Shown: positions 41,326 to 61,873 of the stretch, piece after piece
Position numbering within the stretch: position 1 is the first letter of the stretch
Layout of the letters: the number at the start of each line of letters is the position of its first letter
Assembly: GCA_910585955.1 (NCBI GenBank)
Contig: CAJUGC010000007.1
Location: 6,320-70,319, forward strand
DNA length: 64,000 nt
Direction of reading: 5' to 3'
Source: an uncultured Christensenella sp.
GTDB lineage: Bacteria > Bacillota > Clostridia > Christensenellales > Pumilibacteraceae
The notes under the pieces: model-generated
The model's database searches: none
What the model was told of the DNA's origin: nothing
The model's input: only the letters and a program-made list of their open reading frames with translations
Program-made: the position numbers and the translations under genes

Positions 41326-42702
41326 TTATGCTTTCTGTTTTAAGTATTTGTCTATATATTCGTCCTTGATACGCTTGAGTTCGCTTCTCGGAAGAATGGA
41401 GAGCAGTTCCCAGCCGAGGTCGAGCGTCTCTTCTATGCTGCGATTGGTATTGAAGCCCTGCGAAACATAACGGCGCTCGAACTCCTCGGCGAACTTAGCG
41501 TACTTCTTGTCTGTCTCCGTAAGAGCCGCGTCGCCGAGTATGGCTGAAAGCTCCTTGGCTTCCTTGCCGAGCGAGTATGCGGCAAACAACTGGTTCATCG
41601 TGTCGGCGTGATCCTCGCGCGTCTTGTTTTTGCCTATACCTTTGTCCTTTAATCGGGACAGGCTGGGCAAAACGTCTATAGGTGGGTTGAAGCCTTTTTT
41701 GTAGAGCTCGCGCGAGAGGATTATCTGCCCCTCGGTTATATAGCCAGTAAGGTCCGGTATCGGGTGTGTCTTATCGTCCTCGGGCATGGTAAGAATGGGG
41801 ATTTGAGTTATCGATCCTTTCTTGCCGCGAATACGTCCGGCACGCTCGTAGAGCGAAGCGAGGTCGGTATACATATAACCCGGATAGCCGCGGCGACCCG
41901 GTACTTCCTTTCGAGCCGCAGACACTTCGCGCATTGCTTCCGCGTAATTCGTTATGTCGGTCATTATGACGAGCACATGCATTCCCTTGTCGAATGCGAG
42001 ATATTCCGCCGCCGTAAGCGCCATACGCGGCGTCGAGATACGCTCTATGGCGGGGTCGTCGGCAAGGTTCATAAATAGCACCGTGCGCTCGATCGCGCCC
42101 GTCTTGCGAAAGTCGTCGATAAAGAATTCGGCTTCCTCGTAGGTTATGCCTATGGCGGCGAACACTACGGCGAAGCTTTCGCCCTTGCCGAGCACTTTAG
42201 CTTGGCGTGCGATTTGAGCCGCAAGGTTGGCGTGCGGAAGTCCGCTCATCGAAAACACGGGGAGTTTCTGACCGCGAACGAGCGTGTTGAGTCCGTCGAT
42301 CGCCGAAACGCCGGTCTGAATAAACTCATCCGGATAGTCGCGCGCGGCGGGGTTTATAGGCTGACCGTTGACATCCATGCGCTTTTCGGCGATTATGTCC
42401 GCGCCGCCGTCCTTGGGTCTGCCCATGCCGTCGAACACGCGTCCGAGCATATCGATGGACACGGGAAGTTCTATGCTCTTGCCGAGAAAGCGCGCCTTTG
42501 CCGTGCTTATTTTAAGCCCCTGGCTGACTTCGAAGAGCTGAACGAGCGCTTTGTCTCTGTTTATTTCGAGCACTTTGCCCTGTCGTATTTCGCCGTTTGC
42601 CTGCTCTATTTCGACAAGCTCGTTGTACTTTACGTCCTCTACGCCCTCAACGAGCATCAAGGGACCTACGACTTCACTTATACTGCGATATTCCTTTAAC
42701 AT
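41326..42702 (-). CDS. ntpB: V/A-type ATP synthase subunit B
   Basis: 458 aa. [29 protein letters not shown] and [15 protein letters not shown] are typical of the non-catalytic B subunit. The start overlaps the ntpA stop by 1 nt. Confidence 0.95.
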
Positions 42703-44462
42703 CAGTCACTCTCCTTGCCTGCCGCTTCGGCAAGTTCGCCGCTCATCTGCGCGTCGATACCGTCGAATTCGGCTATGCGCTCCTCGGGAATATACTTGCT
42801 TCTGCCTATCTTCTCCCTCGCGCTTATGCCGAGCACTTTGTCGAGCGCCGCTCCGCCCTCGAGCGCCGAGAGCGAACGTCGATAGCAGTCGATGATAAGT
42901 TTGAGCATACGATACTGCTTGTTAAGCGACGTGTAAGTATCCACCTCGTGGAAGGCGTTTTGGTGGAGATAGTCCTCGCGCACGGCTTTCGCCGTCTCCA
43001 TGGTAAGCCTGTCGCGCGGTGAAAGCGCGTCCATGCCGACGAGGCGGACTATTTCGTCAAGCTGCGCCTCTTCCTGAAGTATGCGCATTGCCTCGGCGCG
43101 ATAGTTGTTGAAGTCTCGCGCGACATTCGACGTATACCAAGACGCAAGACGGTCGGCATATAGGCTATAGCTCGTAAGCCAATCTATAGCGGGGAAATGC
43201 CGCTTATACGCAAGGCTTGCCGACAAGCCCCAATAAACTTTTACTATGCGAAGCGTCGCCTGCGAGACGGGTTCGGACATATCGCCGCCAGGAGGAGAGA
43301 CAGCGCCGATTGCCGTGACGCTCCCCACCCTGTCGCCGCTTCCGAGCACGGACACCTTGCCCGCGCGCTCGTAGAACTCGGCAAGACGGCTCGAGAGATA
43401 TGCGGGATAGCCTTCCTCGCCCGGCATTTCCTCGAGTCTGCCCGACATCTCGCGCAGAGCTTCCGCCCAACGCGACGTGGAGTCCGCCATAATCGCGACG
43501 TTGTAGCCCATGTCGCGGAAATACTCGGCTATCGTTATGCCCGTGTATATGCTCGCTTCGCGCGCCGCAACCGGCATATCCGAAGTGTTGGCTATTAGCA
43601 CGGTGCGCTTCATGAGCGGCTTACCCGTCTTGGGGTCGCTGAGCTCGGGGAACTCGTTGAGAACGTCGGTCATTTCGTTGCCGCGCTCGCCGCAGCCGAC
43701 GTAGACTATGATGTCCGCGTCCGCCCACTTCGCGAGCTGGTGCTGAACTACCGTCTTGCCCGAGCCGAACGGTCCTGGAACTGCCGCGACGCCGCCTTCG
43801 GCTATCGGGAACAGAGTGTCTATTACGCGCTGCCCGGTTACGAGCGGGCGGGCGGGCGGAAGTTTGGACTTGTAAGGGCGACCGCGACGCACCGGCCACT
43901 TCTGCGCCATACGGATATTGACGGTACCGTTTTCGTCCTTTAAGGTGGCTACGGTCTCGTCTATGTTGAAACTGCCTTCTTCTATGCTTGCAACGACGCC
44001 GCTCTTTCCGGGAGGAACCATTATGCGGTGCTCGATGACTTCGTTCTCGCGGACGGTGCCTATAATGTCGCCGCCCGTCACCTTATCGCCCACTTTTACC
44101 GTCGGCAAAAAGTCCCATTTCTTTTTATGATCGAGAGCTGGCACTTCGAGTCCTCTTCCTATCCTGTCGCCGCTCTTTTCCACAAGCATATTCAAGGGGC
44201 GCTGTATGCCGTCGTAAATGCTTTCGATAAGTCCCGGTCCGAGCTCGACGGACAGCGGCGCGTTTGTAGACACAACGTCTTCGCCCGTGCCGAGCATACT
44301 CGTCTCTTCATAGACCTGAATGGACGCTTTGTCGCCGCGAAGCTCTATGACTTCGCCGATGAGTCGGCGCGACGAAACGCGCACGACGTCGTACATCTTT
44401 ACGTCCGCCATGCCTTCCGCAACTATGAGCGGTCCGCTGACCTTAACAATTTTACCTTTCAT
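42702..44462 (-). CDS. ntpA: V/A-type ATP synthase catalytic subunit A
   Basis: 586 aa with [18 protein letters not shown], the Walker A motif GPFGSGKTV, and [22 protein letters not shown]. Confidence 0.96.
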
Positions 44463-55828: not shown

Positions 55829-56605
55829 TTAACCGAAATACGGAAGATATTTGCGGATAAAATCGATCACTATATCCGACGGTATCTCGTATTTCATGCC
55901 GTCGGCGTGCTCGTTTTCACTGAGCATTGCCGCCGCAACATGTACGCCTATAACTTTGCCGCGCTCGTTGAAAACAGGTCCGCCCGAATTGCCGCCGTTA
56001 GTCGCACAGTCTGTCATGATGCGAGGACGTCCTTCAACAGTACGTCTGCGATCGCTTACTATGCCGCGAGTTATGCAGGTGCCGTGACCGAGCGAATTGC
56101 CTATGACGAACACCGGCTCACCCGTGCGGACGTTTGAAAAGTCCTCGAACTCGAGCACGGTCGCTTTTTCGGGCACGCTTGCGAGCTTAAGGAGCGCAAG
56201 GTCGTCTCCGCGATAGTATTCTCCGCTTCCCGCCACGCTGCCCACGCCTATAACTCGAGCCGTGACGCGTTGACCCGCGATATTTACGTTGACGCTTCCG
56301 ACGGCTTCACTGCCGTTCAGAACAACATGAGCGTTCGTAATCCCGTAGCCGTCGCGCGTAATCAAAAGTCCGCTTCCCGAAAACACGCCTCTGTTGCTCT
56401 TCCAGCTTATCTCGAGCACGCCGCCGACCGTACTTTCGAAAATGTCTACTCCGTTCTGGTTATTGACGCTTGCCTGCGTGCGCGAACTTACCGCCGCCGC
56501 AACCTCGAAATCTTCGGCGGAAAACGCGGCTCCGCAAAAGTTACACTTATAATTGCCGCCTCCGAGGTCTTTACAGCTGCCGCCGCAGTTCTTGCAAGTT
56601 TTCAT
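55829..56605 (-). CDS. Trypsin-like (S1/HtrA-type) serine protease with an N-terminal zinc ribbon; no signal peptide, no PDZ domain
   Basis: 258 aa. The N-terminus MKTCKNCGGSC...YKCNFCG has a CxxC...CxxC arrangement. The catalytic triad context is TNAHVV (His), DDLALLKL (Asp) and GGNSGGPVF (Ser). An AAGGAG RBS is present. The gene starts 23 nt downstream of the AAA ATPase gene. Confidence 0.85.
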   Translation of the reverse strand: MKTCKNCGGSCKDLGGGNYKCNFCGAAFSAEDFEVAAAVSSRTQASVNNQNGVDIFESTVGGVLEISWKSNRGVFSGSGLLITRDGYGITNAHVVLNGSEAVGSVNVNIAGQRVTARVIGVGSVAGSGEYYRGDDLALLKLASVPEKATVLEFEDFSNVRTGEPVFVIGNSLGHGTCITRGIVSDRRRTVEGRPRIMTDCATNGGNSGGPVFNERGKVIGVHVAAAMLSENEHADGMKYEIPSDIVIDFIRKYLPYFG

Positions 56606-56628: not shown

Positions 56629-58728
56629 TTATTCGTTCGAGCCCTTCCACTCGAGCAATTTTTCTATGTCCTCGCTTTGCACCGAAGACGTGACTTTTTC
56701 GAATGCCGCGACTACGTCGTCGTTGCAAAGTTTCTTTTCTCCCGTTTTTATCGCACGCAAAGCGGATTGCTCCTCCGCTTTATCGAGAAGCGCTGTTATG
56801 TCCGAACCGTTAAAACCGTTTGACTTTTCGACTGCCGCCGCAACGTCTATGTCGTCGGATACTGCCACTATGCCCTTTTCGCGTATCTTTTCGATTCGAC
56901 GCATAAGCATATATTCGCGCGCGGGCGCGTCGGGCAATCCCACATACACGCGCGTACCGAATCGTCCCGGGCGAACGAAAGCGCTGTCTACATCCCACGG
57001 CTTGTTTGTAGCCGCTATAAGGAAGAGAATGTTGTCCTTCTTTTTGCCGTACGATTCTATGCCCTGAAGCTGGGACAGAAGCTCGCTTCGAAGCTGTTTT
57101 GCGTATTGCGATTTCGTAGACTTGGGGGAAATCGAATCCATTTCGTCAAAGTAAATGACGGCGCACGGAAATTCACGAGCCTGTGCAAACAGCGCACGCA
57201 CGGCTTTTTCCGTATTGCCCACGCCTTGATTGAGAAGATCGGACGGCTTTACGGAGCAGAACTTTGCGCCTATCTCGTTGGCTATCGCCGCCGCTATCAT
57301 GGTTTTGCCCGTGCCCGGAGGTCCGTACAGCAATAGTCCTCCACCGCTCTTTCTGACGTAACCCTCGAATACCTCCGGGTTTTGCAGAGGCAACAGAACT
57401 TTTACGCGCACGACTTCCTTTACGTCGTCCAGCCCTGCAATATCGTCGAAATTTATTACGGGCAGACTGTCCCAATCGAATTTGTATTCGCTTGCCGGTC
57501 CCGTGCCTTCTTCGAGCACTTTCTCCTCGGGCGTAAGCGCTTTGTCATCTTTAGGCGCCGGCTTAGGCGGCTCGGACTTAGGCTTAGGCGGCTCGTTTCT
57601 TTGAGAAGTCTCTTTGGACGCGACTGGCTCGCAATAGCGTACCTCGGACGGAAGGTCGTCTATCGTAATGGTAGTCATAGTATCGTTGTCGGGGTCGGAA
57701 AGTCTCGCCACTCTTCCCGACTGACGCGTGACGATGTTCTCGAAAAGGTTGCGCACGTCTCTTCCGTTTCCGAAATTCTCGTTCCTGTTCTCATAGAGAC
57801 TGCGGAAATAGTCCTTGAGCGCAAAGCGAGCGTCCGCATCCACCGCATAATGATTTTTCTTGCAAGTCACATCGAATATTCCGTATAACTCGCTTCCGTT
57901 GTAATCGTCGAAGTTTATGAACGTCTTAAAACGCGAGCGAAGTCCCGGATTCGACTTTATGAACTTCTCCATGGGCTTGTCGTAACCCGCGACTATGACG
58001 ACGAGATTAGAGCGTTTGTCCTCCATTTCCTTTAAAAGCGTATCTATAGCTTCCTGCCCGAAATCGTTTGCACCGCCGTTTGCAAGCGCATACGCTTCGT
58101 CTATGAACAGCACGCCGCCGTACGCCTTTTTGAGTACGTCTTTTGTCTTGACCGCAGTCTGTCCCACATAGCCCGCAACAAGCCCGCTTCTGTCCACCTC
58201 GACGAGCTGACCCTCCGACAGTATGCCGAGCGCACAATAAATCTGCGCCATAAGTCTGGCGACCGTCGTCTTACCCGTGCCCGGATTGCCCGTAAATACG
58301 AGATGATACGACATATCGGGGACGGGAAGTCCTCTGTCTTTACGCATTTTAAAGACTTTTATTTGGTCTATCCAATCGCCGACTTTGCTTTTGACGGTAG
58401 AAAGGCCGACGAGAGCATTGAGACGAGAGAGCGCTTCCTCAAGCGAAATTTTTTCGTTTTTCACCGCAGTCACGGAGCTTGAAGTCTCTTCCTCTTGTAC
58501 CGCCTTTTTCTCTACGCCTATGCTTTCGGCTTTCTCGATAAGACTCTTTGCACGGTTGAAACGCGCCTTTTGCAGCTCGCCTTCGCTTGCCTTTGCCATT
58601 TTCAGCATTTGCTCTGCGGCAAGCATGAAATAGCGTTTTGCCAAGAACTTATCGCCTTTCTCGAGACAAGATTTTGCCTTGCCGAAATACAAGTCGAAAG
58701 TCTCGCTAAGCATACTCAGATTATCCAT
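56629..58728 (-). CDS. Tandem AAA+ ATPase: MIT-like N-terminal helical domain, SpoVK/CbbX-type AAA domain, Pro/Lys-rich linker, Vps4/FtsH-type AAA domain
   Basis: 699 aa. The N-terminus KAKSCLEKGDKFLAKRYFMLAAEQMLKMAKASEGELQKARFNRAKSLIEKAESI parallels the Vps4 MIT layout (...Y..A.e.fl......k....RAK...yLdRAEkL). D1 has LEEALSRLNALVGLSTVK and HLVFTGNPGTGKTTVARLMA, then VLFIDEAY. D2 has FDDIAGLDDVKEVVRVKVLLPLQNPEVF, LLLYGPPGTGKTMIAAAIANE, VIYFDEMD and ATNKPWDVDSAFVRPGRF. Confidence 0.85.
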   Translation of the reverse strand: MDNLSMLSETFDLYFGKAKSCLEKGDKFLAKRYFMLAAEQMLKMAKASEGELQKARFNRAKSLIEKAESIGVEKKAVQEEETSSSVTAVKNEKISLEEALSRLNALVGLSTVKSKVGDWIDQIKVFKMRKDRGLPVPDMSYHLVFTGNPGTGKTTVARLMAQIYCALGILSEGQLVEVDRSGLVAGYVGQTAVKTKDVLKKAYGGVLFIDEAYALANGGANDFGQEAIDTLLKEMEDKRSNLVVIVAGYDKPMEKFIKSNPGLRSRFKTFINFDDYNGSELYGIFDVTCKKNHYAVDADARFALKDYFRSLYENRNENFGNGRDVRNLFENIVTRQSGRVARLSDPDNDTMTTITIDDLPSEVRYCEPVASKETSQRNEPPKPKSEPPKPAPKDDKALTPEEKVLEEGTGPASEYKFDWDSLPVINFDDIAGLDDVKEVVRVKVLLPLQNPEVFEGYVRKSGGGLLLYGPPGTGKTMIAAAIANEIGAKFCSVKPSDLLNQGVGNTEKAVRALFAQAREFPCAVIYFDEMDSISPKSTKSQYAKQLRSELLSQLQGIESYGKKKDNILFLIAATNKPWDVDSAFVRPGRFGTRVYVGLPDAPAREYMLMRRIEKIREKGIVAVSDDIDVAAAVEKSNGFNGSDITALLDKAEEQSALRAIKTGEKKLCNDDVVAAFEKVTSSVQSEDIEKLLEWKGSNE

Positions 58729-58804: not shown

Positions 58805-59377
58805 TTATATGCCCGAATCTATTTTCTTTTTCAGGGCTTCGAGTTCCTTGTCTATCATGCTTTCGGTCATGCCGTCCGCCGCCGCGGTATTCGTGAACAA
58901 CGCCTCGATCTCGGCGTTTTCGCTCTCGCTCGACATCGTGCCCGTCGAAAAAGCGGACTGTGTGTCGTCCATGAAATTCTCGAGCTGTTCCGTCTGCATT
59001 TCCATACCCATCATGGCTTCGTTGAACTGCTTTTGAACCTTTAAGAAATCTTTTTCTTTCGTGATTTTCATCATATCTTTGGAAAGCGAACTCATGCCGT
59101 CCAAAAACTGCACTGTCATCTGCGACATATCCTTCATCTGCGAGGTTATTTCGAAATTAAGCTTCATCTCATACACTCGCTTTTGCTGCGTGAGCGTCAT
59201 TTTAAGTCCGGACAGCGCAAGATTATACTGAGCGGTCAAGCCCTTTTGCTTCGCCGTCTTGCCGGCTTCTATGTAAACTTTTTTTTGCTCCTCGAGCTTT
59301 TGTATCTGCTTGTTCATGGTGTTGATCGTCTTATTGATCAACATCTTCTTTTCAAGTTCTTTTTTCGTATTTGCCAT
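58805..59377 (-). CDS. ESCRT-III-superfamily protein, CHMP2/3 (Vps2/Vps24)-like, with a C-terminal MIM1-like motif
   Basis: 190 aa, all-helical. It lines up by eye with CHMP3: IQKLEEQKKVYIEAGKTAKQKG against IRDIQREEEKVKRSVKDAAKKGQ, and LSKDMMKITKEKDFLKVQKQFNEAMMGMEMQTEQLENFMDD against STEVMKAMQSL..IQATMRELSKEMMKAGIIEEMLEDTFES. An acidic linker follows. The C-terminus ESMIDKELEALKKKI fits (D/E)xxLxxRLxxL(K/R), apart from Glu at the Arg position and Ile at the first Leu. Confidence 0.6.
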   Translation of the reverse strand: MANTKKELEKKMLINKTINTMNKQIQKLEEQKKVYIEAGKTAKQKGLTAQYNLALSGLKMTLTQQKRVYEMKLNFEITSQMKDMSQMTVQFLDGMSSLSKDMMKITKEKDFLKVQKQFNEAMMGMEMQTEQLENFMDDTQSAFSTGTMSSESENAEIEALFTNTAAADGMTESMIDKELEALKKKIDSGI

Positions 59378-59518
59378 TATCTAAATCATACTCCATTTTA
59401 ATAAAATCGGTTGAAGCGCTCTTTCACGCAAGTCTTGTCACCTCTTTCGTGGCTTGGAATCGACATAGCACGCAAGACGGACAAAAGCGGCACGCCGCCG
59501 AAACGTGATAAATGCGTT

Positions 59519-60112
59519 TCAGATATCGGTTGCGTCCGCCTTTACCTTAGGCGTTTCGGAGAACATCTCCTCCTCGTCCGCGACCTGTTCCTCTTCCTCG
59601 AACATTGCGAGAAGCGCGTTGTCTTGCTCGTTCATGCCGTAAATAGTCTGATTTACGTCGTACGCCTCTTCTATGCCTTTAAACGTCTCGTCCGCAGACG
59701 TCAGCACATCCTCTGCGGCGACTCTCGTATTCAGCGTCTTATTGAGGAACTTCGCAAGTCCTTTCTGATCGGCAAGGAGATTCCCGAGCGACGCTTTCGA
59801 CGTGTTTTTGAAAAACTTGTTGTCGTCTATGGCGTTTTTGAGTTTTTGAAGCATTTGGATATTGTACATTATGTACATATCGCGTTGCACGCTCTGTTCA
59901 CGTTCGGCTTTTAAGGCATTTATCTTTTTAGCGTACAAAAGTTTAAGACTTTTATCCTTTTCGGCTTTGCCCTTAGCCATCATGTCGTCAATCTGCTTCT
60001 GACCGGAAAGAAGCCCGTCCTCGATTTCTTTGGACTGCTGTTCGAGCTCGCAAATAGCCTTTACGACTTCTTCACGCGTCAACTTATCGTATTTGCTTTT
60101 AAAAGGCCACAT
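59519..60112 (-). CDS. ESCRT-III-superfamily protein, Snf7/CHMP4-like
   Basis: 197 aa. It starts MWPFKSK (yeast Snf7 starts MWSSLFGW). EEVVKAICELEQQSKEIE...GKAEKDKSLKLLYAKKINALKAEREQ follows the Snf7 alpha1-alpha2 hairpin pattern (AI..L.....L.kk......a....gnk..A...LkkKK..E.q). The C-terminal tail is acidic (EEEEQVADEEE). Confidence 0.55.
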   Translation of the reverse strand: MWPFKSKYDKLTREEVVKAICELEQQSKEIEDGLLSGQKQIDDMMAKGKAEKDKSLKLLYAKKINALKAEREQSVQRDMYIMYNIQMLQKLKNAIDDNKFFKNTSKASLGNLLADQKGLAKFLNKTLNTRVAAEDVLTSADETFKGIEEAYDVNQTIYGMNEQDNALLAMFEEEEQVADEEEMFSETPKVKADATDI

Positions 60113-60123
60113 AATTCCTCCGC

Positions 60124-60450
60124 CTATATCTTAGCGTTTCTGTCTGCTAACGTGAGCTTTATCTGCGTCAACAGATTTTCGGCCTTCTTGGTAGTCTCGC
60201 CGTCGCCTTTCGTGAGAGCTATACGCATATCGCCTATAAGGTCTCTGATTTTCTTATCGCAAGACTGGACTTCTTTCGTCTCGGTTGCTATAAGATACTT
60301 TAGCTTTTCTTGAAGCTCTTTGAGCTGATCTGTCAAATATTCGTTACCGTCCGCAAGAACCAAAAGAGCTTCGATCGCCTTATTGTTCTGCTCGACGAGT
60401 TCCTTGTCTTCGCGCGTCTTTTCCGACGCTTTCTTTTTAAAGAAAAACAT
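60124..60450 (-). CDS. Small (108 aa) all-helical protein of unknown function within the ESCRT-III-like operon
   Basis: An AAGGAG RBS lies 7 nt upstream. The gene sits 12 nt after the SPFH gene and 11 nt before the Snf7-like gene. It is charged and helical (KELVEQNNKAIEALLVLADGNEYLTDQLKELQEKLKYL...). Confidence 0.65.
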   Translation of the reverse strand: MFFFKKKASEKTREDKELVEQNNKAIEALLVLADGNEYLTDQLKELQEKLKYLIATETKEVQSCDKKIRDLIGDMRIALTKGDGETTKKAENLLTQIKLTLADRNAKI

Positions 60451-60462
60451 ATTTTCGCTCCT

Positions 60463-61521
60463 TTACTTTAATTTGTTTCCGCAGGTTGCGCAGAACATTG
60501 CGTCGGCTTCGTTGTTGCTCCCGCACTTGGGGCAAGCGGTCTTTTCTTTCACGAGCCTGTTGCCGCAATTAGGACAGAATATAGCGGCCGCAGTATAGGG
60601 CTTTCCGCAATTCGAGCAAAAAAGCGACGCGCCCGACGGTATGCCTGCCGCACCGGCGCCCACACCGACGACCGGCGCATGACCTATGACTTTCAAAACG
60701 TCGTAATACGCGTTCTTGTCCTGAAGCTCGAGTTGACGCAAATACTTATCGCGCTCCCATTGCTTGTCGTCGAGACGTTCGATCTCCGCAAGATATTCTT
60801 TAAGCTTCTTTTCTCGTTCTTCCTTGAGTCGCTTTTCGGCAGCTGCGTTTTCCACAGCCGCTTTGTCGCTCGCGTCTATTCCCACCCACTCGATTATGAA
60901 GTCGGTGAGACCAACGCCCCAACTCTTTTCAAATTTAGGCGAAAGTATGCCGCCGACTGTTATACCGATGTCCTTTTTATGCGCGTCGAACTGATCGTAT
61001 GTAAGCTTTCTTTCGGCAACGGCTTTCAGAAATGCGTCCGAAAACTCGTTTACCACTTCAGCCGAAAAGCGGGTTTGGAAATCATCCTTGTCGAACTCGC
61101 GGCGAACGCCTACTACTTTACGGAAAAACTGTTCGGGATTTGCTATCGTCACACCGAACTGACCGCGCGCACCGATGTTGACAACATGGTTGCTCGCTTC
61201 ATCCCTGTAGGTAAAACGTTGCGGCGTGCCCCAGAATACGATGAGACTGCAATCTTTGGGCATATAGATTACGTCAACCGAAAAGCCTTTCTTCCAAGCT
61301 TTTATTTCCTTACGATCGTCAAACACGTCGTAAGCTCCGCTCTTGTAAAAACGCGCGTCTCCGCCGCCCTTTATTATATATGCGTTGTGCGTATAGGGCA
61401 CTTCTATCATCGCGTGTTTGTCTCTTATCTCATCCGCCACGCGAACAAAGAGCACGCTGTTATCGTTTATGTCGGCATTGCAATGATTCTGCTCGAACTT
61501 GACAATCTGCGGTTTTCCCAT
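60463..61521 (-). CDS. SPFH-superfamily protein of the YdjI ('virion core protein-like', COG4260) type with a C-terminal double zinc ribbon
   Basis: 352 aa. The N-terminal 230 aa (…YIIKGGGDARFYKSGAYDV…VFWGTPQRFTYRD…VNIGARGQFGVTIANPEQFFRKVVG…WGVGLTDFIIEWVGIDAS) resemble YdjI-type SPFH domains. A coiled coil follows (KRLKEEREKKLKEYLAEIERL). The C-terminus is CSNCG..CPNCG...CPKCG..CATCG, four CxxC pairs. Confidence 0.7.
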   Translation of the reverse strand: MGKPQIVKFEQNHCNADINDNSVLFVRVADEIRDKHAMIEVPYTHNAYIIKGGGDARFYKSGAYDVFDDRKEIKAWKKGFSVDVIYMPKDCSLIVFWGTPQRFTYRDEASNHVVNIGARGQFGVTIANPEQFFRKVVGVRREFDKDDFQTRFSAEVVNEFSDAFLKAVAERKLTYDQFDAHKKDIGITVGGILSPKFEKSWGVGLTDFIIEWVGIDASDKAAVENAAAEKRLKEEREKKLKEYLAEIERLDDKQWERDKYLRQLELQDKNAYYDVLKVIGHAPVVGVGAGAAGIPSGASLFCSNCGKPYTAAAIFCPNCGNRLVKEKTACPKCGSNNEADAMFCATCGNKLK

Positions 61522-61589: not shown

Positions 61590-61618
61590 ATTATAATAGA
61601 TTTTTCGGAAATAGTCAA
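61590..61618 (-). promoter_or_regulatory. Sigma-70-type promoter of the SPFH / ESCRT-III-like / AAA / protease operon
   Basis: On the minus strand: TTGACT (61618-61613), a 17-nt spacer, then TATAAT (61595-61590), about 70 nt upstream of the SPFH ATG. Confidence 0.5.
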
Positions 61619-61873
61619 GAACGTAGAGATTAGAAGTAGATTAAAAAGGGAAAAATTGTTCCACTAAAACGATCGTCTTTTTTTCGCTTTCATTGAATAA
61701 ATCAAACTGTTTTGACCGAATTGCCCACGCTTACCTGTTTGCCTTTTCTGTTTACGCCGTCGGGACGAAATGCGCCGTCTTAATGAATATAAGCAAAAAC
61801 ACGTTTAGCAAAAACGACGAAACGAAAAGCGCCTGAATTCAATCAAGCGCTTTTATCATAACGATTTCGGAAA

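Follow-up and report, generated by a model that had tools for sequence, protein, structure and literature searches.

A conserved bacterial operon pairs a Snf7-type protein with a MIM1-like tail and an AAA+ ATPase with a MIT-like N-terminal domain

Introduction

Whether a bacterium can encode an ESCRT-III protein together with an ATPase able to recruit it by its tail is the question raised by one gene on a 64,000-nt stretch of DNA (hereafter the window) from an uncultured Christensenella sp. A 2025 review stated that bacteria appear to lack a Vps4-like ATPase (PMC7619361), and ESCRT components proper were reported as not identifiable in bacteria (PMC10936438). PMC11237479 already noted Snf7/AAA+ associations in bacteria and a clostridial PspA with an “inactive AAA + classical AAA” dyad, and suggested ATP-dependent membrane remodelling. 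An initial annotation of the window proposed a CHMP2/3-like protein with a C-terminal MIM1-like helix, encoded directly before a MIT-like AAA ATPase. In the literature searched, no description of the operon was found.

Results

The gene (58805..59377, minus strand) encodes a predicted ESCRT-III (Snf7/CHMP-family) protein of 190 amino acids from an ATG start, with a GGAG motif 13 nt upstream. The layout proposed for it earlier, of ESCRT-III type, was borne out as to charge and, at low confidence, as to helices: the peptides quoted earlier are present as written, and the protein has a basic N-terminal half, an acidic C-terminal half and five predicted helices. Net charge was +9 (pI 9.8) over residues 1-105 and -10 (pI 4.2) over residues 106-190, and the mean charges of the two halves across 75 family members were +9.5 and -11.2. 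AF2 placed helices at residues 2-44, 48-105, 108-145, 151-164 and 170-187, positions resembling those in ESCRT-III, at a mean pLDDT of only 54 (shallow alignment). Because of this pLDDT, the Foldseek ranking obtained with the model, in which Asgard ESCRT-IIIB, Snf7, Vipp1 and CHMP2A/3 came top, every one at E≥1, carries no evidential weight. Column counts indicated a conserved acidic amphipathic helix at residues 151-164 (58886..58927, minus strand; a low-confidence helix in AF2), at the position of ESCRT-III helix alpha5. The family consensus there is I-S-D-x-E-I-D-x-L-I, with D154 in 54/75 members, E156 in 58/75, and hydrophobic residues at 157, 160 and 161 in at least 73/75. Most members also carry the N-terminal consensus M-x-x-F-K-x-K; the clade of the window begins MANTKKE, without the Phe of that motif. 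No Rfam family was found within the whole window.

Homologues of the 190-aa protein numbered 551 at E≤1e-3, falling into 362 clusters at 50% identity. By itself the window protein was sub-threshold for Pfam Snf7 (PF03357; 14.6 bits against a threshold of 27.3, E=0.027). Family-level comparison used a diverse profile of 75 members (A2) and a narrow profile of 25 close homologues (A1). Against PDB sequences, A2 matched human CHMP2A at E=1.2e-5, then CHMP1B, Vps24, CHMP3 and CHMP1A, which were the sole natural ESCRT proteins matched; designed helical repeats and prefoldin were also among its matches. The narrow profile gave no ESCRT-III match in PDB, and the diverse alignment was needed. The HMMER alignment paired residues 10-139 of the window protein with CHMP2A residues 11-143, at a poor single-sequence E-value, and hhalign of the family against the CHMP2A fragment returned a probability of 85.6% (E=5.6e-6). 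Pfam Snf7 was matched by 11 of the 75 members (best 9.6e-7), and a fused homologue, P0260, scored 27.3 bits, equal to the Snf7 gathering score. PspA_IM30 (PF04012) had no match at E≤1 for the window protein, nor at E≤0.01 for any of the 75 relatives, and the PDB sequence searches that found the five CHMP/Vps24 proteins found no PspA or Vipp1 chain at E≤10. The 190-aa protein is, at the level of family profiles, a member of the Snf7/ESCRT-III family, and the profile matches support the CHMP1/2/3 (Vps2/24/46) branch, which carries MIM1, as its nearest solved relatives. The parallel with CHMP proteins drawn by the initial annotation was borne out in this form, with Snf7 significant at family level and PspA not matched.

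The MIM1-like core, E172-S-M-I175-D-K-E178-L179-E-A-L182-K183 (58829..58864, minus strand), lies inside the terminal helix at residues 170-187. Set against (D/E)xxLxxRLxxL(K/R), it agrees at 5/6 positions if Ile is counted as Leu, and it deviates by Ile175 at the first Leu position and Glu178 at the Arg position, exactly the alignment claimed beforehand. The three MIM1 hydrophobic positions (175, 179 and 182) are each hydrophobic in 71/75 diverse members (~95%). Acidic residues occupy column 172 in 47/73 members and column 176 in 60/74. Position 178, where the consensus has Arg, holds K/R in 36/75 and Glu in 19/75, and positions 183-185 are basic. A relaxed MIM1 pattern within the last 25 residues was present in 43/51 orthologues, in 20/99 divergent representatives and in 0/731 non-family ORFs, while the bare hydrophobic register also occurred in 21% of background C-termini. 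Judged from these aligned columns, a terminal helix in MIM1 register is conserved in the family. The expectation that orthologues keep the terminal motif stood for the register and for the relaxed pattern among orthologues, and did not extend to most of the divergent representatives.

The following gene encodes an ATPase whose residues 1-70 (58519..58728, minus strand) form, by AF2 and Foldseek, a MIT-like bundle of three helices, which is proposed to receive the tail helix. Here pLDDT was at least 95 over residues 11-70, with helices at 2-24, 27-47 and 50-69. MIT domains made up 19 of the top 50 PDB matches by Foldseek, at E-values of 0.08-1; the target-normalised TM was 0.72-0.73 for CdvC (2w2u, 2v6y) and 0.76 for VPS4A (1yxr, rmsd 1.3 Å), and VPS4B, spartin, MITD1 and katanin were further MIT neighbours. 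Single-sequence Pfam and PDB searches did not detect MIT in this domain. Pfam MIT matched 4/25 ATPase orthologues (best E=0.0032), profile comparison with VPS4 MIT gave E=0.7-2.5, hhalign against VPS4A/B MIT gave 24% probability, and a homologue search with the 93-aa N-domain returned only nine fragments. The label MIT-like is used here for a modelled fold, not for significant sequence similarity, and the earlier description of a downstream MIT-like AAA ATPase is upheld to that extent: a confident bundle with MIT domains as its top neighbours, and weak support from sequence. Three-helix bundles are common generally.

Two AAA+ domains follow the bundle. D1 (residues ~95-360; 57649..58446, minus strand) is of the SpoVK/CbbX/EccA type (NCBIfam SpoVK 2.4e-89, EccA and CbbX; Pfam AAA_lid_6), in which Walker A/B are intact and the pore loop is G-Y-V-G, motifs that were kept in 38/38 orthologues. 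D2 (residues ~420-699; 56632..57471, minus strand) is a classic-clade AAA domain, closest by profile matches to CDC48 D2, PAN and CdvC; its Walker A/B and Arg fingers are intact, and its pore loop, Q-G-[AV]-G, has no aromatic residue in 38/38 orthologues. In the classic AAA domain of Vps4 and CdvC, pore loop 1 is the aromatic K-W-M/L-G-E. The CdvC equivalog model scored the window ATPase at 174.5 bits against a cut-off of 650, and the CDC48 and PAN models scored slightly higher. D2 was matched by the IetA model (PADLOC) at 7.8e-41, an alignment confined to the AAA core (positions 124-343 of the 374 in the model), and by NCBIfam IteA at 9.6e-35. No sigma-54 activator or DNA-binding domain was found in the ATPase with Pfam and NCBIfam. 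Orthology to Vps4 is ruled out by the two AAA domains, the SpoVK-like D1, the D2 scores for CDC48 and PAN, and the missing pore-loop aromatic.

Genome loci were gathered with close alignment, and the locus set therefore represents one clade. The ESCRT-III-like gene was followed by an ATPase with a MIT-like N-domain in 47/48 assessable loci, and the same adjacency was seen in seven distant loci (L054, L056, L058, L060, L061, L062 and L064); the linkage of the two genes is near-obligate. The N-domain stayed constant as the motor varied (SpoVK-like plus classic AAA, SpoVK-like only, classic AAA only, or RuvB-like), and it was the only feature common to the partner ATPases. A single classic AAA domain follows it in relatives L050, L054, L056, L061, L062 and L064, whereas the window ATPase has the SpoVK-like D1 between. 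On the single-AAA partners in L050 and L061 the NCBIfam CdvC model aligned end to end, N-domain included, and the pore loop in L061 and L062 reads S-K-W-[VQ]-G.

In some homologues a RuvB-like ATPase is fused directly onto the ESCRT-III-like domain, and family members are fused to or adjoin RuvB-like ATPases with NERD or TnsA-like nuclease domains. The loci of relatives add TIR, nuclease or FtsK modules; this wider operon and these accessories were absent from the initial annotation. Genes for proteins with a zinc ribbon, TPR and TIR_2 separate the ESCRT-III-like gene from the ATPase gene in 7 loci; such proteins have homologues in ~37/52 loci and vary at their C-termini (BspA-type LRR, 4Fe-4S or L7/L12 C-terminal domain). 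Their presence varies among close relatives: L002 holds a 3.9 kb insertion with one such gene, and the window has none. Their N-terminal TPR-like hairpin was considered as a MIT-like element and rejected (hhalign only 9%). Core gene order was fixed across the order-level clade, and the flanking genes (DUF2383, pyrophosphatase) were common to close relatives.

In the window, six genes on one strand, separated by gaps of 12, 11, 141, 76 and 23 nt, lie downstream of a promoter-like site (TTGACT-17-TATAAT, 11/12 matches, by consensus match only; 61590..61618, minus strand) that stands upstream of the first of them. Their order is SPFH/zinc-ribbon protein, 108-aa protein, 197-aa protein, 190-aa ESCRT-III-like protein, ATPase and trypsin-like protease. 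The leading gene (60463..61521, minus strand) encodes a 352-aa SPFH protein that has a coiled coil and, at its C-terminus, two zinc ribbons (Pfam Band_7_1 2.7e-15, zinc-ribbon/DZR 1e-11), a candidate membrane-proximal scaffold. An SPFH gene heads the cluster in ~41/52 related loci, and a Band_7_1 gene is also present in the distant L058, L062 and L064. The 108-aa helical protein (60124..60450, minus strand) begins MFFFKKK, is conserved in position across loci and had no family match in Pfam or NCBIfam; several orthologues (L004-L007, L021, L024) have an extra N-terminal hydrophobic segment, transmembrane by eye.

The 197-aa helical protein (59519..60112, minus strand), which begins MWPFKSK and has an acidic C-terminus, is likewise conserved in position. 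Its gene was directly upstream of the gene for the ESCRT-III-like protein in 49/50 assessable loci, as was that of a relative in distant locus L056 (hhalign 99.9% to A3, the profile of the 197-aa protein). No ESCRT match was found for it in PDB or Pfam, and its homologue search listed only close relatives. By hhalign, A2 and A3 were collinear over 161 columns with a score of 28.9 and a probability of 24%; among 20 block-shuffled controls the highest score was 19.5. This profile comparison is suggestive, and the 197-aa protein may be another, highly diverged subunit of ESCRT-III-like type. For the 108-aa protein, and for the 344-aa and ~300-aa proteins of distant loci, no relation to the ESCRT-III-like or 197-aa family was detectable. 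The last gene of the cluster (55829..56605, minus strand) encodes a 258-aa trypsin/HtrA-like serine protease with an N-terminal zinc ribbon (Pfam Trypsin_2 1.8e-26), a ribbon common to the protease and the TIR proteins. The protease is a facultative member, with a homologue in 22/52 loci, most directly after the ATPase, and also beside the RuvB-fusion gene in L062. It matched retron RT-protease and LmuA models and, in PADLOC, did not match IetS. A mobile-element origin was rejected, as there were no matches in phage or plasmid collections and no PHROG match.

Discussion

The only significant solved relatives of the 190-aa protein are eukaryotic and Asgard A-type ESCRT-III proteins (CHMP1/2/3; Vps2, Vps24, Did2), which work with Vps4. 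The resemblance covers length class, a predicted basic hairpin, acidic tail, alpha5-like helix, a terminal helix in MIM1 register and a partner ATPase with a MIT-like N-domain, here encoded next door. The differences are a bacterial host, identity of ~20%, Glu for Arg in the motif, a window copy apparently without the N-terminal membrane-insertion motif and, unlike Vps4, an ATPase with two rings and a SpoVK-like D1. Neither ESCRT-I/II nor winged-helix partners turned up in the scanned genes of the cluster. CdvB binds CdvC by a MIM2-type motif, not a MIM1 helix, and has a winged-helix domain, which is absent from the 190-aa protein. In archaeal CdvB/CdvC and euryarchaeal ESCRT loci (Meth_adaptin type, PMC10936438), as here, the ESCRT-III gene directly precedes that of a MIT-AAA ATPase. 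The likeness to CdvC extends to the end-to-end model alignments on relatives' single-AAA partners, with the window ATPase far below the cut-off, and no adaptin-like or CdvA genes were seen at the locus.

Among bacterial systems, the soluble SPFH protein YdjI of B. subtilis is required for bringing PspA, which belongs to the ESCRT-III superfamily, to the membrane (PMC8581546). The operon resembles PspA-YdjGHI (SamGHI) in encoding an ESCRT-III-superfamily protein with a soluble SPFH protein (PMC8581546); here, however, the protein is of Snf7 type, an unfoldase-type ATPase absent from PspA systems is present, and no YdjG/YdjH-like integral membrane proteins were identified at the locus. The dyad described in PMC11237479 likewise has a Firmicutes ESCRT-III-superfamily gene adjoining a two-domain AAA+ ATPase. 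In that case PspA is the partner and is encoded after the ATPase, whose N-terminal AAA domain is described as inactive, whereas here the partner is a Snf7-type protein, Walker A/B are kept in both AAA domains and D1 is SpoVK-like; in the passages of the article consulted, neither a MIM/MIT pairing nor an operon led by an SPFH gene was mentioned for the dyad. The anti-phage ATPase-protease system IetAS also places a classic AAA ATPase next to a serine protease, but the N-domain, D1, ESCRT-III-like and SPFH genes have no IetAS counterpart, and the protease was not matched to IetS.

On balance, we favor a Snf7-type ESCRT-III protein that is remodelled by the adjacent ATPase docking its MIM1-type tail; polymerisation, membrane binding, the tail-MIT contact and disassembly are the steps that we infer. 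By its basic N-terminal hairpin, the 190-aa protein would polymerise at the inner face of the cytoplasmic membrane, probably acting together with its operon neighbours, namely the SPFH/zinc-ribbon protein and two small helical proteins. Its acidic, flexible C-terminal region would display the terminal amphipathic helix, which would dock on the MIT-like bundle at the N-terminus of the double-ring ATPase. The ATPase may then pull subunits from the polymer, most likely via the tyrosine pore loops of the SpoVK-like D1 ring, and such extraction would result in ATP-driven turnover or remodelling, like that of Vps4 on ESCRT-III. As cellular roles, membrane repair or stress is one candidate and membrane-linked immunity another.

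Other readings of the protein and its tail were weighed against the same evidence. That the resemblance is compositional, with a coiled-coil protein unrelated to ESCRT-III, is very improbable: Met/Gln/Lys/Glu-rich helices do draw spurious matches, such as the designed helical repeats and prefoldin, and single-sequence E-values were poor, but the CHMP2A profile alignment was full-length and collinear with five CHMP/Vps24 proteins matched, the Pfam Snf7 matches in 11 relatives are independent of it, and both charge polarity and the type of genomic partner agree with ESCRT-III. We give equally little credence to a PspA/Vipp1-type stress protein that coats and stabilises damaged membrane alone, with the ATPase unrelated or merely regulatory, like PspF. 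In bacteria, PspA and Vipp1 are the established representatives of the ESCRT-III superfamily (PMC8281802), the SPFH partner is reminiscent of PspA-YdjI, and Vipp1 was among the non-significant Foldseek matches; against this, neither PspA_IM30 nor a PspA/Vipp1 chain was matched where Snf7 and CHMP/Vps24 were, and the ATPase lacks a sigma-54 activator or DNA-binding domain. It is unlikely, though less so, that the terminal helix serves not for ATPase docking but as an intramolecular or intersubunit element (e.g., autoinhibitory on the hairpin) or as an SPFH contact, with the ATPase recognising the polymer by another route. Such a role would suit a generic amphipathic helix whose bare register recurs in background C-termini, with Glu at the Arg position in the window protein and variable flanking charges in the family, as well as the weak sequence evidence for MIT. 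MIT domains also recognise their ligands in seven or more modes (PMC9477494), so binding to MIT does not require the MIM1 register. Yet, like MIM1, the helix lies at the very C-terminal end, preceded by an acidic linker of low confidence, the N-domain is the sole feature common to partner ATPases, and the separate alpha5-like helix (151-164) already suits an autoinhibitory role.

The wider operon and the TIR, nuclease and FtsK modules of relatives indicate that the role may be membrane-linked stress or immunity, and they make such a role a serious alternative to ESCRT-like trafficking or division. The same parts could serve a membrane-associated conflict system (anti-phage or abortive infection), in which polymer and ATPase would be a sensor or platform for protease, TIR and nuclease effectors rather than for housekeeping remodelling; this is a real possibility, if short of probable, and it rivals the biological role only, not the tail-MIT mechanism. 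It is favored by the TIR_2 proteins between the two core genes and their homologues in other loci, by the variable presence of the TIR-protein gene (L002 versus the window), by the RuvB-like ATPases with fused or adjoining NERD or TnsA-like nucleases, by the matches of the D2 core to anti-phage IetA/IteA models and by the zinc ribbon common to protease and TIR proteins. However, TIR and nuclease genes are missing from the locus in the window itself, core gene order is fixed over an order-level clade with flanking genes common to close relatives, neither plasmid nor phage matches nor a full PADLOC system match were found, and TIR and LRR proteins exist outside immunity too.

Tentatively, and with more doubt than confidence, gut Clostridia (Christensenellales and relatives) may possess a complete ATPase-coupled ESCRT-III machine, built from an SPFH scaffold, between one and three ESCRT-III-like subunits, and an unfoldase with a MIT domain, recruited by a MIM1-type tail. 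If so, the MIM-MIT recruitment code would not be restricted to archaea and eukaryotes; it would either be older than the split of the archaea/eukaryote lineage from bacteria or have been exchanged between domains. The bacterial polymer would then also be a membrane platform for interchangeable motors and effectors (classic AAA, SpoVK-like, RuvB-nuclease, FtsK, TIR, protease), a prokaryotic counterpart to the many MIT-domain cofactors recruited by eukaryotic ESCRT-III. The family, with at least 362 sequence clusters, almost all unannotated, is found in gut bacteria, and its repeated association with modules of TIR, protease, nuclease and FtsK type suggests that ESCRT-III polymers may serve undescribed bacterial stress or immune functions. 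By pairing a Snf7-type subunit that has a MIM1-like tail with a MIT-like AAA+ ATPase, this conserved bacterial operon makes it tractable to test whether the MIM-MIT code and the turnover of ESCRT-III by ATP-driven machinery are older than the archaeal lineage or were spread by transfer.

Membership in the ESCRT-III Family

The ESCRT-III-like ORF (58805..59377, minus strand) begins with ATG, encodes 190 residues and has a GGAG motif 13 nt 5' of its start; the peptides cited for it in the initial annotation were found in its translation. A set of 5.8 billion proteins held 551 homologues (E ≤ 1e-3), nearly all unannotated or labelled "hypothetical protein", and an exhaustive HMMER search gave 362 homologue clusters at 50% identity, numbers which marked it as a genuine gene under selection. 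Between the window and its closest genome, an uncultured Christensenellaceae gut-collection MAG (L002), the protein was 99% identical, despite a surrounding DNA identity of about 78-85%.

Scanned alone, the protein matched Pfam Snf7 below threshold (E = 0.027, 14.6 bits; gathering score 27.3) over residues 14-148 and model positions 6-138 of 171, and its top PDB sequence match was CHMP2A (E = 0.24). A profile of 25 close homologues gave no PDB ESCRT-III match. A broader profile, built from 75 members that shared 24-66% identity, matched CHMP2A in the PDB at E = 1.2e-5 (profile positions 11-142, CHMP2A residues 8-142), followed by CHMP1B, Vps24, CHMP3 and CHMP1A, with no PspA, Vipp1, Snf7/CHMP4 or CdvB chain at E ≤ 10; in hhalign it reached 85.6% probability (E = 5.6e-6) against the CHMP2A fragment. 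When these members were scanned singly, Snf7 was matched by 11 of 75 (best 9.6e-7) and PspA_IM30 by none, and one fused homologue attained the Snf7 gathering score. The profile matches argued with high confidence for a divergent Snf7-family member nearest the CHMP1/2/3 branch, and the original label, CHMP2/3-like, was right.

The charge polarity of ESCRT-III was present in the window protein (+9 for residues 1-105, -10 for residues 106-190) and in the family (means of +9.5 and -11.2 for the N- and C-terminal parts). An AF2 model from a shallow alignment was poor (pLDDT 54), and its helices (2-44, 48-105, 108-145, 151-164 and 170-187) fit the ESCRT-III layout. Its Foldseek neighbours (Asgard ESCRT-IIIB, Snf7, Vipp1, Loki CHMP4-7 and CHMP2A/3) all had E-values of at least 1 and were therefore no evidence of ESCRT-III identity.

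The C-Terminal Helix

In the register of the type 1 MIT-interacting motif (MIM1), the tail of the window protein reads E172-x-x-I175-x-x-E178-L179-x-x-L182-K183. Among the 75 diverse members, residues 175, 179 and 182 were each hydrophobic in 71/75, residue 186 was hydrophobic in 56/71, residues 172 and 176 were acidic in 47/73 and 60/74, respectively, and residues 183-185 were mostly basic. Position 178, where MIM1 has Arg, held Lys or Arg in 36/75 and Glu in 19/75. By these counts, Glu178 of the window is a minority variant within the family, whose consensus (D-x-[DE]-I-D-K-K-L-x-x-L-K-K-K-I) is closer to MIM1 than the window copy; one distant member terminates in the canonical core I-S-E-R-L-E-K-L-K.

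A relaxed MIM1 pattern, [DE]xxΦxxxΦxxΦ[KR], sought in the last 25 residues, occurred in 43/51 orthologues, in 20/99 representatives (50% clustering) and in 0/731 non-family ORFs of the same loci, while the bare hydrophobic register occurred in 77/99 representatives versus 21% of background ORFs. These rates indicated that the terminal helix is conserved and non-random and that strict MIM1 identity belongs to only part of the family. The MIM1-like reading of the tail was sound as to its conserved register. Residues 151-164 (I-S-D-x-E-I-D-x-L-I) make up a further conserved helix, placed where alpha5 of ESCRT-III would lie.

The Partner ATPase

The next gene downstream (56629..58728) encodes a 699-aa ATPase in four parts: an N-domain of about 70 residues, a SpoVK/CbbX/EccA-type AAA+ ring with AAA_lid_6 (D1, residues ~95-360), a Pro/Lys-rich linker, and a classic-clade AAA ring (D2, residues ~420-699). 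In all 38 full-length orthologues, Walker A and B were intact in D1 and D2, the D1 pore loop G-Y-V-G was kept, and the D2 pore loop read Q-G-[AV]-G, without an aromatic. In the window, D2 pore loop 1 (57205-57231, ATPase residues 500-508) is N-Q-G-V-G-N-T-E-K, a Gly taking the place of the aromatic residue of classic AAA proteins; the D2 Arg fingers are intact. D2 scored 188 bits with the CDC48 model, 187 with PAN and 174.5 with CdvC (cut-off 650). The SpoVK-type D1, the CdvC score below cut-off and the D2 pore loop without its aromatic led us to reject the ATPase as a Vps4 orthologue.

Single-sequence scans of the N-domain gave no MIT match. Pfam MIT matched 4/25 of its orthologues (best E = 0.0032, not counted significant), VPS4A/B MIT chains matched its profile at E = 0.7-2.5, and hhalign against verified VPS4A/B MIT sequences gave 24% probability. 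AF2 with ten homologues predicted a confident three-helix bundle (pLDDT ≥95 for residues 11-70), for which MIT domains made up 19 of the top 50 Foldseek matches among 350,542 PDB chains, including VPS4A (TM 0.76, rmsd 1.3 Å), Sulfolobus CdvC (TM 0.72-0.73), VPS4B, spartin, MITD1, katanin p60 and NRBF2, at E-values of only 0.08-1, the domain being small. By eye, helix 3 (S-L-I-E-K-A-E-S-I) resembles the MIT hallmark of VPS4A (Y-L-D-R-A-E-K-L). The model thus supported an MIT-like N-domain at the level of fold, which does not imply homology to MIT. The proposed MIT-like AAA ATPase next door was supported as to adjacency and fold.

Gene Linkage and Motor Variety

Linkage was assessed in 52 species-level genomes, which were MAGs from Christensenellales and other Clostridia together with two labelled Bacilli and one Lachnospiraceae. 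Their gene order (SPFH, 108-aa, 197-aa, ESCRT-III-like, ATPase and sometimes protease) was nearly fixed, and the ATPase followed the ESCRT-III-like gene in 47 of the 48 loci whose contig extended far enough. The motor took three forms within this operon type: N-domain, D1 and D2 (~700 aa), as in the window; N-domain with a SpoVK-like ring only (371-437 aa; related loci L023:8616-9731, L042:8561-9874, L044:8561-9745 and L045:5511-6647); and N-domain with a single classic AAA ring (379-489 aa; L050:4368-5507, 379 aa, and L053:8530-9999), which is the architecture of Vps4. The CdvC model covered residues 9-367 of the L050 protein (model positions 6-366 of 370). These forms suggest that rings were gained or lost modularly around a constant N-domain.

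Among distant family members (24-45% identity; L054, L056, L058, L060, L061, L062 and L064), the ESCRT-III-like gene again adjoined ATPases with the same N-domain, most aligning to its profile at 76-98% hhalign probability. Two ATPases flanked the gene in L061, the N-domain was also found on a RuvB-like ATPase-nuclease in L058 (76.5%), and some single-AAA partners kept a Vps4-like pore loop, S-K-W-x-G. The N-domain was the only constant beside the ESCRT-III-like gene across loci, as expected of an adaptor-ligand relationship. This linkage is the strongest argument for pairing of tail and N-domain, and the predicted interaction is well motivated by it.

In other homologues the ESCRT-III-like domain was itself N-terminally fused to a motor, either a RuvB-like AAA+ ATPase followed by a nuclease of NERD or TnsA-like type (800-940 aa; proteins P0169, P0171, P0223, P0236, P0237, P0249 and P0260) or an FtsK/SpoIIIE DNA translocase (P0174 and P0182), at the position of the membrane domain in canonical FtsK. 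The fusion loci L062:8001-10403 and L064:8001-9863 also had the core module, made up of genes for SPFH, a 344-aa protein, an ESCRT-III-like protein and an MIT-like AAA ATPase.

The Remaining Genes of the Operon

A strong promoter-like site lies 5' of the SPFH gene, whose Band_7_1-type product has a coiled coil and two zinc ribbons. A link between SPFH and ESCRT-III proteins has a precedent in B. subtilis, where PspA is bound by the soluble SPFH protein YdjI and depends on it to reach the membrane (PMC8581546). The 108-aa (60124-60450) and 197-aa (59519-60112) proteins and most ESCRT-III-like members share an N-terminal M-[GWC]-[LPF]-F-[KR]-x-K, which recalls ESCRT-III N-terminal membrane-binding motifs. 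Several 108-aa orthologues (L004-L007, L021 and L024) have an extra N-terminal hydrophobic segment, read by eye as transmembrane and absent from the window copy. The 197-aa family was collinear with the ESCRT-III-like profile (score 28.9, shuffled controls ≤19.5, probability only 24%), and the 197-aa protein matched no ESCRT structure or Pfam ESCRT family; the alignment is suggestive of a candidate second ESCRT-III-like subunit. Two clear ESCRT-III-like paralogues were encoded in each of L058 and L064.

Locus L058 (1049-3827) has a tandem array of three paralogous genes (267, 315 and 308 aa; products MGLFGYNKRDFEKN-like at the N-terminus) between an SPFH/zinc-ribbon gene and the second ESCRT-III-like paralogue (219 aa); none of the three matched a family or could be related to the ESCRT-III-like profile. 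The 141-nt gap before the window's ESCRT-III-like gene (59378-59518) is the longest in the operon; its coding strand has weak hairpins of terminator type (59507-59491 and 59500-59488), which could allow different expression of upstream and downstream genes; differing expression levels were reported for pspA-ydjG of B. subtilis (PMC8581546). Elsewhere, G+C was 0.58 at 42001-44000, compared with about 0.48 in the rest of the window, and a scan of the whole window detected no Rfam family.

Cellular Role

As a best explanation, the ESCRT-III-like protein would form a polymer acted on by an unfoldase recruited through the tail helix, and its role may be membrane repair or remodelling, or membrane-linked immunity. 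It is possible that the operon serves immunity with the same molecular parts. A constant core surrounded by varying TIR, protease and nuclease accessories is characteristic of conflict systems. In seven loci, a zinc-ribbon, TPR and TIR_2 gene separated the ESCRT-III-like gene from the ATPase (L008:4063-8230, L012:7771-9792, L016:8577-11219, L020:8667-12032, L022:3079-4971, L029:2216-5236 and L033:9122-11863), its product ending variably in a BspA-type LRR, 4Fe-4S or ribosomal L7/L12 C-terminal domain. The window locus has no such gene, although homologues lay beside the cluster in about 37/52 loci and L002 carries a TIR_2-type gene on a 3.9 kb segment missing from the window (L002:1822-5749, between the DUF2383 and SPFH genes, corresponding to 61661-61867). 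The trypsin-like protease, which 22 loci encode, has an N-terminal zinc ribbon in common with the TIR_2 proteins, and D2 matched models of the anti-phage ATPase IetA, in the AAA core only. Several observations spoke against a classic defence island: gene order was fixed, flanking genes were partly conserved among relatives, no phage or plasmid copies were found, and PADLOC gave no full system match. Weighing the immunity-like accessories against the fixed order and lack of mobile copies, we retained the recruited-unfoldase mechanism, in which the polymer may serve either role.

A 2024 survey found ESCRT homologues identifiable in archaea "but not in bacteria" (PMC10936438), and a 2025 review stated that a Vps4-like ATPase "appears absent in bacteria" (PMC7619361). 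In a comparative genomics study of PSP, bacterial Snf7 homologues were sporadic, some bacteria had acquired Vps4-like ATPases by transfer without Snf7, a Clostridium PspA adjoined an "inactive AAA + classical AAA" protein, and ATP-dependent remodelling was proposed in general terms (PMC11237479). No description of the SPFH-led operon, the MIM1-like tail, the MIT-like N-domain on different motors or the TIR link was found in a literature with thin coverage of subscription journals, so an earlier description is possible. The observation at 58805..59377 was confirmed, and its interpretation was supported in part: ESCRT-III membership and the conserved MIM1-like tail were sound and the N-domain was MIT-like by fold, but the ATPase was not Vps4. 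The finding is of interest for ESCRT evolution, bacterial membrane biology and bacterial immune biology.
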